Source: Dictyostelium discoideum (taxonomy: Eukaryota). From it: a stretch of 64,000 bases of DNA. The stretch spans positions 3,456,001 to 3,520,000 of the forward strand of contig CM000153.2 of the NCBI GenBank assembly GCA_000004695.1. Reading direction: 5' to 3'. This document shows positions 3,087 to 9,387 of this stretch, piece by piece (the first letter of the stretch is position 1; each line of letters opens with the position of its first letter). Both the position numbers and the translations under genes were made by a program. The notes under the pieces were generated by a model. It was given only the letters and a program-made list of their open reading frames with translations. It did no database searches and was not told the DNA's origin.

Positions 3087-4253
3087 ATGTTCCCAGGACA
3101 AGAAAGAAGAGAAATTGAAATATGTGTTGCAAAAGTTGGAGAACTTTATTCATTTTTGGGGGTTTCAAAAACATCAACAACAAAAGAGATAACATTTGAG
3201 TTTTTAAGAATTAAAAATAAATTGGGTATTGAGGGGGATGAAATTAATAATTTGGAAATGGATAAATTAAAAAAAAATTATTATGAACCATCGTTATTAT
3301 CATACAATATTTTAACAAATCCAATAGCCAGATCAATGTATGATAATGAATATTATGAAATTGCATTATTATTAAGTGAAATTAATAATAATAATAAAAA
3401 AAAAAAAAAAAAAATTTTCATTTATCAATTACTATCAAACACACTTGATTTAATATTAGTTAATATGAGTAAAAAAGGAAATCAATCAATTTTAAAAATG
3501 GCTGAAATGATTTATGAAAGAAATGGTCCAACTTCATTCTTTATTGGTGGTGCATATAACCTATGTGGTGCTATAATTCATTCGAAATTAATCTGTAATC
3601 CAATCAATGCAATCATTTTAATGTTAGTTGGCGAGGAAAGTGAAAAAATAATGATAAACTCTGATGGTATATTAAGTGCAATAACATATTATCCAATTAG
3701 ATTTATTATTGATTGTCTTTTCTTATCACCTTTTACAACTTCACCAATTAAAGTTATAAATGATATAATACTAGGTAGAGATGGTAGTGCCGTTGGTGAT
3801 AGTGAAAGTTCAAATTTATTTTATTCATTTACTTCAAGTATTTCAATATTATTACTCAAAAAATTAATTGATATTTCAATTATTAAAATTGATAAAATAA
3901 TATTAGAGAATGTTAAAAAAAACAACAACAACAACAGTAATGAATCAAAATTTTGGAAATATTGTGAAATTATTTATTGTAATTCAATTACTCAAGGTAT
4001 ATTAAGGGCATCTTTATTACATCCACTACAAATCATTCGTTTACAATATCCATACGAATTTGTTGAATCTTATTTACAAGGCACTCCAATTCCAGAAGTA
4101 ATCGGTCCAATTTCAATGGCTATTAAAGTTTATAATCAACAAGGTTTTTCAAAATTCTTTAATGGTTTCTCACTTGCAATTCCATTTTATATTATTCGAT
4201 CTATTTCAACTAGAATTTCTCCTCCAAGAAATTTAAATCTTTATTCTGATTAA
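3087..4253 (+). CDS. C-family protein: degenerate J-like N-terminus (no HPD) plus carrier-like C-terminal motif, 388 aa
   Basis: The ORF starts at an ATG directly after an A-run. Residues 19-46 (ELYSFLGVSKTSTTKEITFEFLRIKNKL) resemble helices I-II of a DnaJ domain, but the HPD tripeptide is absent. The C-terminal region has HPLQIIRLQ and GFSKFFNGFSLAIPFYIIR. These resemble the P-x-D-x-x-K-x-R-x-Q and G-x-x-G-[LF]-[YF]-x-G motifs of mitochondrial carrier repeats. It is a paralog of 7966..9387. Function is unassigned. Confidence 0.5.
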   Translation: MFPGQERREIEICVAKVGELYSFLGVSKTSTTKEITFEFLRIKNKLGIEGDEINNLEMDKLKKNYYEPSLLSYNILTNPIARSMYDNEYYEIALLLSEINNNNKKKKKKIFIYQLLSNTLDLILVNMSKKGNQSILKMAEMIYERNGPTSFFIGGAYNLCGAIIHSKLICNPINAIILMLVGEESEKIMINSDGILSAITYYPIRFIIDCLFLSPFTTSPIKVINDIILGRDGSAVGDSESSNLFYSFTSSISILLLKKLIDISIIKIDKIILENVKKNNNNNSNESKFWKYCEIIYCNSITQGILRASLLHPLQIIRLQYPYEFVESYLQGTPIPEVIGPISMAIKVYNQQGFSKFFNGFSLAIPFYIIRSISTRISPPRNLNLYSD

Positions 4254-4890
4254 GAATCTAGATTTATTTTTATAAAAAAAAAAAAATTAAAAAAAAAAAA
4301 TGAAAAAAAAAAAAAAAAAAAAAAAAATGAAAAAAAAGGATTTAATTTGTACTAAAAATTCTAAATTAAAATAAATAAAATTTCAAATTACTTGAAAATT
4401 TAATAAACATCTCAGTGCATGTAACCCTAACTTTCTGTTTCTGGCGAATTGTTTAATTGATTTCTTTTAAATAAATATTTATTTTAATATGAAACCAAAT
4501 GATATTTTTTGATTTTTTGATTTTTTTTTTTTATGATTTAAAAAAAAAAAATTGAGAAAAAACCTTTGACCAAAAATTAATATATAATTTATTTAATTTA
4601 AAGAATACAAACCTCATTTTTTTTATAAAAATAAATAAATAAATAAATAAATAAAGCTATACAACTCCTTTTTTAATTTTTGATTACTAAATTTTTATTT
4701 TATTTTTATTTAAATTAATTAATAATAATAATTTTTATTTTTTTTTTTTTTTTTTTTTTTTTTTTTTTTTTTTTTTTTTTCTTTTTAAGAGTTGGTTATA
4801 ATTTTTAACTCCTAATTTTTAATGAAATGAATAATATATAATTTATTATTATTATTAATTGGTAAAAACCATTTGTAAAATTATTATTAT

Positions 4891-4994
4891 TTTTTTTTTT
4901 TTTTTTTTTTTTTTTTTTTTTTTTTTTTTTTTTTTTTTTTTTTTTTTTTTTTTTTTTTTTTTTTTTTTTTTTTTTTTTTTTTTTTTTTTTTTTT
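4891..4994. repeat. Uninterrupted poly(dT) tract of about 104 nt
   Basis: This is a homopolymer run. On the minus strand it is a poly(A) run that begins inside the TAA stop codon of gene 4993..6417. Confidence 0.9.
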
Positions 4995-7965: not shown

Positions 7966-8032
7966 ATGAAAAAAAAGGTATTATTACACACTCAAGTCGA
8001 ACTTGATGAATTAAAAGAATATATGCTATCAG
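7966..8032 (+). CDS. C-family paralog, exon 1 (MKKKVLLHTQVELDELKEYMLS + 1 nt)
   Basis: The ATG is at 7966. The exon ends with a GTAAAT donor at 8033. The 84-nt AT-rich intron ends in AG at 8115-8116. Phase-1 junction keeps the downstream ORF in frame. Confidence 0.5.
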
Positions 8033-8116
8033 GTAAATATTTTTTTTTTTCTTTTTTTTTTCTTTTTTTTCCATTTCAATTAATTTAAATTGATTATTTA
8101 AAAAATATTACACCAG

Positions 8117-9387
8117 GTGATCCCTATGGAAATTTAAATTTAAATAAGAATGAAACAACTAAAGATCCAAGATTGATTGAAAAAAGTTATAAAGTTTTGA
8201 TTAGAAAACATAAAATAGCAATGAGCGAAAAAAGAAAACAAGAGACCAAACCAAATAAAGATGAACTTGAAAGAGACGAAGAACATTTTATAAAATTAAC
8301 AAATTCATATAAACTCTTATCAAATCGTAGAATGAAAGAATTATATGATCATTATTACTATGAAAAAATGGTAAAAATAAATAAAAGTAATGAAAAAAAT
8401 GAAAGTAATCCTTCATTTTCAAAAAGTTTATCTTCAACCTCAACTTCAGCATCAACATCAACAACAACATCACAAACATCACAAACATCAAGGTCACACA
8501 CATTATTATTATTAAAAGATTTATCACATTTATTAATGAATATTACATATTATCCAATTAGAGAATATTGTTATTTCATTCAAAGTTCAGTTAATATTAA
8601 TGGAGGATTCGATGAAAATGTATTTAATTTTAAAGAGTTACCAAAATATGGATTAGGAAAACTTTATAGAGGAATATTATTATCATCAATTGGTTTAAAT
8701 CAACTCAATGCTTTTAGAAGTATTATATTGAGCAAAGTTGCTGGTGGTTTATTGCAATTAAAACCTCACTCTTTGGTTGGTAGAATTTTAAGGTTTGCCT
8801 CCAAGTTTGCTGTTCTTATTCCATTTTGTTTGGTTGTTGACGTTTATGTTTTGGCACCAACCGAGTATTCTTTAATTAAAGTAATTAGAGATTGTATTCT
8901 AAAGAGAGGTGGTGACGGTATCAAATTTAGTAATTTATATTACTCTTTGTTCCCATCACTATCAATATTGGTTTCCAAGAAATTAATTAGAGGATCCGTT
9001 GAATTTTTAAAAGAAAGAATTAGTAAAAAATATGAAAATAATAAAGAAAGTAAGAAATTGGCCATATTGAATTCACTATTTTCAAATGTTGGTCTATTAT
9101 CAAGTTTCCTGTGTTGCCCTTTACAAGTGATTTATATTCAATATCCAAAGTTAATCATTAATTCTTATTTAGAAAATAATATTAGTTCAATACCATCACC
9201 TACTTTAAATCCAATCTCAATTGCAATTGAAATTTATAAAAATAACAATAACTCATTAAGTAAATTCTTTTGTGGTTTAGTTCCATATATATTATCAAAT
9301 GTTTATTTACATTATATTACCTCGGCCGCTATCATTAATACTAATAATAAAAAGTCAACTTATGATTATTTTGATATTTTTTCTTAA
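8117..9387 (+). CDS. C-family paralog, exon 2 (J-like segment DPYGNLNLNK...YKVLIRKHKIAM, carrier-like C-terminus)
   Basis: The long ORF (track 8173..9387) extends upstream in frame to the acceptor at 8117. Shared blocks with 3087..4253 are ITYYPIR, IKVI.D.IL.R.G, PLQ[IV]I.[LI]QYP, PIS[MI]AI[KE][VI]Y and SKFF.G. The protein has Ser/Thr-rich and poly-K low-complexity inserts. Confidence 0.55.

Follow-up and report, generated by a model that had tools for sequence, protein, structure and literature searches.

A J-like domain joined to a degenerate mitochondrial-carrier domain in two neighbouring genes of Dictyostelium discoideum

The subject of this analysis is a pair of genes lying close together in a 64,000-nucleotide stretch of the Dictyostelium discoideum AX4 genome (contig CM000153.2, positions 3,456,001 to 3,520,000 of the forward strand; ~20% G+C), referred to below as the window. 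Each gene encodes a protein in which an N-terminal J-like domain is joined, through a low-complexity linker, to three degenerate repeats of the type found in the mitochondrial carriers of solute carrier family 25 (SLC25). This fusion is a new domain architecture made from two known folds, and the family that carries it is uncharacterised; no paper on DDB_G0285611 (the first gene of the pair), on the family member DDB_G0289991 or on a J-domain/carrier fusion was found in the literature. The two proteins belong to the mitochondrial-carrier superfamily by fold, by repeats and by profile score, yet they lack its signature motif; and, since the J fold is present and its histidine-proline-aspartate (HPD) tripeptide is not, they count as J-like proteins rather than true J proteins. 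On balance, they are probably membrane scaffolds built from a J domain, a tether and a degenerate SLC25-type carrier, and neither solute transporters nor activators of Hsp70.

Results

Two paralogous genes with the same domain layout

An initial annotation, made from the letters and their open reading frames, had reported two paralogous genes here, and both reading frames were found where it had placed them. The peptides that it quoted are likewise all present in the two products: YSFLGVSKTSTTKEITFEFLRIKNKL and DPYGNLNLNK...YKVLIRKHKIAM at the N-termini, and PLQIIRLQYP / PLQVIYIQYP and GFSKFFNGFSLAIPFYIIR / SLSKFFCGLVPYILSNVYL towards the C-termini. The product of gene 1 is 100% identical to NCBI DDB_G0285611, a hypothetical protein of D. 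discoideum AX4. Gene 2 contains one intron, and its spliced N-terminus, MKKKVLLHTQVELDELKEYMLSGDPYGNLN, agrees with the annotated N-termini of the orthologues P0006, P0008, P0009 and P0011; gene 2 orthologues are 70-92% identical. The features of the two genes are as follows.

3087-4253, + strand: gene 1 (DDB_G0285611), open reading frame of a single exon, 388 amino acids; J-like domain, linker and three degenerate carrier repeats
3138..3362, + strand: gene 1 J-like domain (~residues 18-92), with N-K-L at the HPD position (alignments A1 and A3)
3423..3641, + strand: gene 1 carrier repeat 1 (~residues 113-185), kink proline lost (T in AX4; alignment A3 and motif table)
3642..3911, + strand: gene 1 carrier repeat 2 (~residues 186-275), motif YPIRFIID
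3912..4250, + strand: gene 1 carrier repeat 3 (~residues 276-388), HPLQIIRLQYP ... QGFSKFFNG, with the stretch matched by Pfam at residues 302-369
7966-8032 + 8117-9387, + strand: gene 2, 445 amino acids, one intron; ATG at 7966, stop codon ending at 9387
7966..8032, + strand: gene 2 exon 1, 22 codons and one base, for the helix ahead of the J-like domain (from the sequence and splice sites)
8033..8116, + strand: gene 2 intron, GT..AG, 84 nucleotides, AT-rich
8117..9387, + strand: gene 2 exon 2, encoding the J-like domain, the Ser/Thr-rich linker and the three carrier repeats, with the stop codon
8119..8364, + strand: gene 2 J-like domain, with H-K-I at the HPD position and helix II predicted to continue through it
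8374..8484, + strand: gene 2 Ser/Thr-rich linker, predicted to be disordered
8485..8754, + strand: gene 2 carrier repeat 1, YPIREYCYFIQ ... GLGKLYRG
8755..9033, + strand: gene 2 carrier repeat 2, IPFCLVVD ... FSNLYYS
9034..9384, + strand: gene 2 carrier repeat 3, CPLQVIYIQYP ... SLSKFFCG

The two products are paralogous by blastp (E 8e-21, 38% identity over the C-terminal 164 amino acids). Their J-like N-terminal regions align on their own (E 4e-4), as do the second carrier repeats with each other, and tblastn found no third copy in the window. Overall identity is ~24% and the two genes fall in different clades of a rough neighbour-joining tree; since they are not sisters there, their adjacency does not derive from a recent tandem duplication, and this origin was rejected. 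The genes flank an inverted one, as had been noted, namely a 474-amino-acid open reading frame on the minus strand at 4993-6417. The arrangement is conserved in D. citrinum, where the order is a 668-amino-acid gene (-), the gene 1 orthologue (+), a 473-amino-acid gene (-), the gene 2 orthologue (+) and then genes of 618 and 255 amino acids; the reading frames of both genes are intact in 4-6 species. Very long homopolymer runs of T and A lie directly upstream of both genes (2866-2938 and 7830-7930), and Logan assemblies break there.

A J fold that has lost the HPD

The four helices and the helix II-III hairpin of a J fold are present in the N-terminal region. The HPD tripeptide, whose place is between helices II and III, is absent from both proteins when they are searched over their whole length, so that the earlier description of a J-like N-terminus lacking HPD holds, with the J relationship now established by profile and fold comparison. 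The matches to the Pfam DnaJ profile are weak: that of gene 1 is partial (E 0.019) and that of gene 2 spans the whole profile (positions 1-63, E 0.004), both lying under the gathering score. A profile built from close homologues (alignment A1) matches ~20 solved J domains along their full extent, with DNAJA3 (E 8.1e-5) and DNAJC5 (E 8.9e-5) scoring best. Against the PDB this shallow A1 profile reached J domains only, and carriers came up when the broader A4 profile was used.

In the first AlphaFold model of gene 1, the predicted local distance difference test score (pLDDT) is 67-84 over residues 21-90 but falls to 49 in the loop of residues 51-60. In the model of gene 2, helix II runs straight through the HPD position and the turn is moved to ETKPN. 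The HPD tripeptide is required for stimulation of the Hsp70 ATPase, as is well established in J-protein biochemistry, and it is kept, in the form [KRQ][HY]HPDK, by 5 of the 29 aligned family members (P0014, P0018, P0023, P0035 and P0033). Because these relatives retain the canonical tripeptide, the ancestral protein was probably a true J protein, and most of the paralogues would have lost the HPD since. The residues that replace it in gene 2 (HKI..SEKRKQETKPNK) are nearly invariant among orthologues. Outside the standard J domain and ahead of it, a conserved helix with the pattern P-P-x-Q-x-E-x-x-x-L-x-x-x-L-S-x-G-[DE]-P-Y (columns 1-40 of A3) is shared by the HPD-bearing members and exon 1 of gene 2.

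The low-complexity linker, which joins the J fold to the first carrier helix, is rich in N and K in gene 1 and in S and T in gene 2. In the gene 2 model pLDDT is below 50 for residues 94-123, and the linker is unconstrained, with a ratio of nonsynonymous to synonymous substitution rates (dN/dS) of 1.35; judging from the model, it is a flexible tether. At their extreme N-termini the proteins contain acidic residues and lead straight into the J fold, and by inspection these ends do not have the look of matrix presequences.

Three whole carrier repeats

The C-terminal parts had been described as containing carrier-like motifs. This relationship is real, being seen by Pfam, by profile-profile alignment, by a profile search of the PDB and by fold comparison, and it can now be refined: what is present is not a set of isolated motifs but three whole repeats, with a degenerate signature. 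Gene 1 matches the Pfam family Mito_carr (PF00153) at 24.3 bits, above the gathering threshold of 22.3 (E 2.6e-5, residues 302-369). Taken singly, the Pfam scores of the two proteins hint at both domains but do not decide the matter. When the family alignment is divided into its repeats, these prove mutually homologous and in register (hhalign E 2e-6 for repeats 1 and 3, 2.3e-4 for 1 and 2, and 3.7e-3 for 2 and 3). When the family alignment is compared by hhalign with an alignment of three genuine carriers, the three repeats all fall in register over 246 columns (Prob 97.7%, E 1.9e-12); shifted-register alternatives also appear, as expected of a three-fold repeat protein. Ten column-shuffled controls of the family alignment gave E values of 0.1-0.99. 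The gene 1 clade by itself reaches E 4.1e-7 against the genuine carriers.

A carrier-part profile of 22 sequences found 13 PDB sequences at E <= 1, all 13 of them mitochondrial carriers; the best were yeast AAC3 (1.1e-7), Ggc1 (1e-6), bovine AAC1 (1.1e-5) and UCP2 (2e-5). The AlphaFold model of gene 2 (pLDDT 77.9, predicted template modelling score 0.61) shows, as a prediction, the bundle of six transmembrane helices with three short matrix helices that is expected of SLC25. All eight top Foldseek matches are carriers, with probability 1.00, and the fold matches consist solely of carriers and J domains. A Kyte-Doolittle scan found the helices to be moderately hydrophobic, which is compatible with a carrier and is not diagnostic of one.

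These results bear on the simplest alternative, that the resemblance arose by chance in a low-complexity, AT-biased protein. The proteins are indeed rich in N, K, I and S, gene 2 alone fails to match Mito_carr, and both genes lie under the DnaJ gathering score. However, relatives that are not of low complexity reach E 7.4e-20 for DnaJ and 1.3e-9 for Mito_carr, the profile-profile alignment is far removed from its shuffled controls, and the fold search returned nothing other than the two families concerned. Chance matching, which the initial annotation had named as the outcome that would overturn it, is refuted by the profile, profile-profile and fold comparisons, and we regard it as extremely improbable.

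A dictyostelid family

A profile of the carrier part (alignment A2) was searched against 1.84 billion representative proteins and gave 26 matches at E <= 1e-3, ~20 of which are clusters of the family with the same layout. Three others are genuine carriers, each matched in three stretches (P0027, E 2.3e-6; P0029, 3.4e-5; P0030, 5.1e-5, annotated as a carrier of Albugo laibachii). Among the 29 aligned members DnaJ matches 24 and, at E <= 0.1, Mito_carr matches 21; the two-domain layout thus belongs to the family as a whole and is no coincidence. The pairing of a J-like region with carrier motifs had been called unusual, and no description of it was found in the literature; it is not isolated, however, but recurs through a dictyostelid multigene family in which some members have the HPD.

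All named members are dictyostelid, coming from D. discoideum (including DDB_G0289991), D. citrinum, D. dimigraforme, D. firmibasis, D. purpureum (F0ZFC1, F0ZKH5, F0ZKH6 and F0ZDR1) and Polysphondylium violaceum; three clusters (P0023/P0035, P0031 and P0033) are of unassigned origin. By word-indexed search, orthologues came up in close relatives alone (D. cf. discoideum, D. citrinum, D. dimigraforme and D. firmibasis), and a third type of paralogue, one that has no J domain, came up as well. A further word-indexed search with the 22-sequence carrier profile gave nothing new, its candidate list probably having been filled by low-complexity words.

The J domain is entirely missing from P0005/P0012, P0017 and P0020; P0005 has in its place an N-terminal region of ~230 amino acids that resembles a coiled coil, and P0012 and P0020 begin at the carrier domain. 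In the neighbour-joining tree of the carrier part, which is rough and has no bootstrap, gene 1 groups with the J-less subfamily and P0022, and gene 2 groups with a J-less protein of D. purpureum. In D. purpureum, P0019 and P0021 (XP_003287926 and XP_003287927) are consecutive genes on one contig of 76,991 bp and belong to different clades of the family, which makes them a second case, in another species, of adjacent family genes.

Loss of the carrier signature

Carriers possess a three-fold network of charges that gates the alternating-access cycle, and in their signature, PX[DE]XX[KR]X[KR] on helices 1, 3 and 5, these charges follow a kink proline. In the family the kink proline is kept in 22, 29 and 29 of the 29 members in repeats 1, 2 and 3 respectively, and the G-x-x-[FY]-[YF]-x-G blocks are retained; the proline of gene 1 repeat 1 is lost in 3 of 4 species. 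The signature as a whole is not found. Across the family, repeat 1 has mostly R at position 3 and S or L at position 6, and repeat 2 has C, K or N at position 3 and a hydrophobic residue at position 6. In repeat 3, 9 of the 29 members have D/E and 14 have R. In the window proteins themselves the third motif reads PLQIIR (gene 1) and PLQVIY (gene 2), with Q where D/E is expected. Carriers have a second, cytoplasmic network motif, [FY][DE]XX[KR], at the ends of helices 2, 4 and 6. At the end of helix 6, where the alignment is unreliable, no such motif is visible beyond the G-x-x-F-F-x-G block of repeat 3 in gene 1 (FYIIRSISTR) or gene 2 (SNVYLHYITS), and the acid alone is retained in some relatives (LLESFS, LLEDIS).

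Set beside canonical members of the superfamily, such as bovine AAC1 (2c3e/1okc) and human UCP1 (8hbv), the Dictyostelium proteins thus lack the charges in repeats 1 and 2 and have a degenerate version of them in repeat 3. They also add a J or J-like domain of ~95 amino acids and a disordered tether at the N-terminus, and they are extremely divergent. Because the signature charges are lost from the first two repeats and Q stands for D/E in the third, the matrix-gate salt-bridge network, judged by the residues at these positions, cannot form; its loss argues against conventional antiport.

It is conceivable that the proteins are nevertheless working solute carriers, in which the J-like domain is a regulatory or gating appendage comparable to the EF-hands at the N-terminus of the aspartate/glutamate and ATP-Mg/Pi carriers. 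The three-repeat fold is complete and confidently predicted, the kink prolines are conserved, as are the G-x-x-F-Y-x-G blocks, and all the gene 2 repeats are under purifying selection (dN/dS 0.26-0.46). Yet the charges of the matrix network are missing family-wide from repeats 1 and 2 and, in gene 2, from repeat 3 (PLQVIY), the helix 6 motif is unrecognisable in both genes, and the family is so divergent that only three carriers of the 1.84e9-protein library came within E <= 1e-3; we consider such a transport role unlikely.

Selection on the two genes

The dN/dS values are rough, each being a single pairwise Nei-Gojobori comparison with D. citrinum in an AT-rich genome, and they differ between the genes. 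Gene 2 has an overall ratio of 0.36 (0.29 in the J-like domain and 0.46, 0.26 and 0.28 in repeats 1-3). Gene 1 evolves close to neutrally, with a ratio of 0.74 (0.82 in the J-like domain and 0.96, 0.87 and 0.44 in repeats 1-3), so that repeat 3 is the sole part of it under clear constraint; four neighbouring genes gave 0.23-0.43. It is gene 2 alone that clearly combines the three marks of a J-like protein, that is, a retained J fold, absence of the HPD and continuing selection on the region (0.29, as against 0.82 in gene 1). By these sequence comparisons gene 2 appears to be a constrained, functional gene, and gene 1 appears weakly constrained outside its last repeat and may be either decaying or diversifying. 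The D. dimigraforme orthologue of gene 1, P0004, lacks part of repeat 1, through either a true deletion or an error in the gene model.

Could one or both genes then be functionless duplicates, relics of an HPD-bearing J-carrier ancestor drifting within an array of fast-evolving genes for secreted proteins? The high ratios in the J-like domain and first two repeats of gene 1 (0.82-0.96), the repeat 1 proline gone in 3 of 4 species, the gap in the D. dimigraforme orthologue, the loss of the HPD from both genes and the fact that no expression evidence was found (the Logan contigs being genomic) would all agree with decay. On the other hand, the frames are intact in 4-6 species with gene order conserved, gene 2 as a whole and its J-like domain are constrained, as is repeat 3 of gene 1, and the HPD replacement in gene 2 is nearly invariant. 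Decay of this kind, which would concern gene 1 above all, is in our estimate improbable.

The surrounding array

The two genes lie inside a large array (500-50450) of two families of secreted proteins, called 'L' and 'S' in the initial annotation, with ~11 'L' genes and ~5 'S' genes. The 'L' products are of 470-690 amino acids, with a signal peptide and an N-terminal block of the form ...NYN..RNYNS.EECG...PC..., and the 'S' products are of 247-266 amino acids; pairwise blastp E values within the array are as low as 1e-109. Neither these families nor the neighbouring genes gave any match in Pfam. The segments 22635-28356 and 30954-36259 appear to be a recent segmental duplication of an L-S-L triplet, with protein identities of 88%, 91% and 86%. 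The gene between the J-carrier genes (4993-6417, -) has an 81%-identical paralogue 10 kb downstream at 15998-17428 (+). Beyond the array are two large open reading frames, 54010-56088 (-, 692 amino acids) and 58599-61814 (+, 1071 amino acids), that are unrelated to the L and S families.

Discussion

The scaffold role proposed above for the two proteins can be set out as follows. Like that of other degenerate carriers, the carrier part would most likely anchor the protein in a membrane or form a scaffold there, and would not be a solute antiporter. The HPD-less J fold, held on its tether, would most likely serve as a protein-interaction module, and activation of Hsp70 by the same protein seems unlikely; by analogy with Pam16 and Pam18, it could pair with an HPD-bearing member of the family or with another J protein. 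As to where this might occur, the N-termini of carriers face away from the matrix, and the intermembrane space is not known to have an Hsp70. Consequently the HPD-bearing relatives make sense only if their N-terminus is cytosolic, and the ancestral HPD-bearing proteins probably resided in a membrane that exposes the N-terminus to the cytosol, either the mitochondrial outer membrane or that of another organelle, in line with other degenerate carrier homologues.

Several considerations weigh against this interpretation, or against parts of it. Gene 2 alone has no Mito_carr match in Pfam and is tied in by its paralogy and by the family profile; its clade reaches only E 2.4e-3 against the genuine carriers, which is marginal beside shuffles of 0.06-0.9. 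Its own signal being weak, gene 2 is assigned to the carriers on the strength of the family alignment and of the predicted fold, and the input to AlphaFold was that same family alignment. The prediction for gene 1 was poor (pLDDT 50, from an 11-sequence alignment with gene 1 as the query), for which reason that model was not used in the fold search. Some carriers with imperfect motifs still transport, and the dN/dS values are open to the roughness already described. The Logan contigs contain the gene 2 intron and so are genomic, which means that they offer no evidence of expression. Neither localisation nor transport data on these proteins were found in the literature; the location, topology, partners and lack of transport proposed here are deduced from the loss of motifs and from what is generally known about carriers and J proteins.

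A more specific role, as a class of organelle-surface machinery so far unrecognised, may also be envisaged, in which a carrier-derived scaffold with a tethered J domain, sitting in a membrane that faces the cytosol, would recruit cytosolic Hsp70, for example for the hand-over or insertion of clients in the manner of an MTCH2-type insertase, the HPD-less paralogues being regulatory as Pam16 is to Pam18. We consider this improbable.

How do the proteins compare with known systems? Carriers with a soluble, regulatory N-terminal domain exist, namely Aralar and citrin and the SCaMC/APC proteins (PMC7050145). These are the nearest architectural analogues, since in them too a soluble N-terminal domain is followed by a three-repeat carrier; but their N-terminal domains are Ca2+-sensing EF-hands and their signatures are intact, whereas the Dictyostelium proteins have a J fold in that place and have lost the signatures. 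The nearest functional analogues would be two other groups, on the one hand MTCH2, SLC25A46 and Ugo1 and on the other the Pam18/Pam16 pair. MTCH1/MTCH2, SLC25A46 and yeast Ugo1 are outer-membrane proteins in which a carrier fold with eroded motifs is used for purposes beyond metabolite antiport. Unlike the Dictyostelium family they are not known to have a J domain, and the likeness drawn here is one of fold and eroded motifs; the one related PDB match, to an MTCH2-UCP1 chimera (12oy, E 1.9e-5), is not assignable to its MTCH2 part.

Pam18 (Tim14) and Pam16 (Tim16) are a membrane-tethered J protein and its HPD-less, J-like partner of the same fold, and the Dictyostelium family similarly has both HPD-bearing and HPD-less members. 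The geometry differs, however, in that Pam18 is anchored by a single pass with its J domain at the C-terminus, in the matrix, whereas the Dictyostelium proteins have the J fold at the N-terminus and a six-helix carrier fold as their anchor. The respiratory complexes of Tetrahymena (7w5z, 8bqs and 7tgh) contain both carrier-family and J-domain proteins as structural subunits, but these are separate polypeptides, and those of a ciliate.

Carriers and J proteins are among the best-studied protein families, and yet no description of their fusion was found in the literature; a paper on the dictyostelid carrier family does not mention J domains. The counts of both SLC25 and J proteins in dictyostelid genomes are thus probably incomplete. 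In topology the architecture would be an awkward one for a canonical carrier of the inner membrane, as the N-terminus would point towards the intermembrane space, and this suggests that the family is probably another instance in which the carrier fold has been reused outside transport. With some members that keep the HPD, a majority that have lost it and some without any J domain, the family forms a natural series for asking what each of the two folds does in the absence of its catalytic hallmark, and, Dictyostelium being genetically tractable, such questions are open to direct test.

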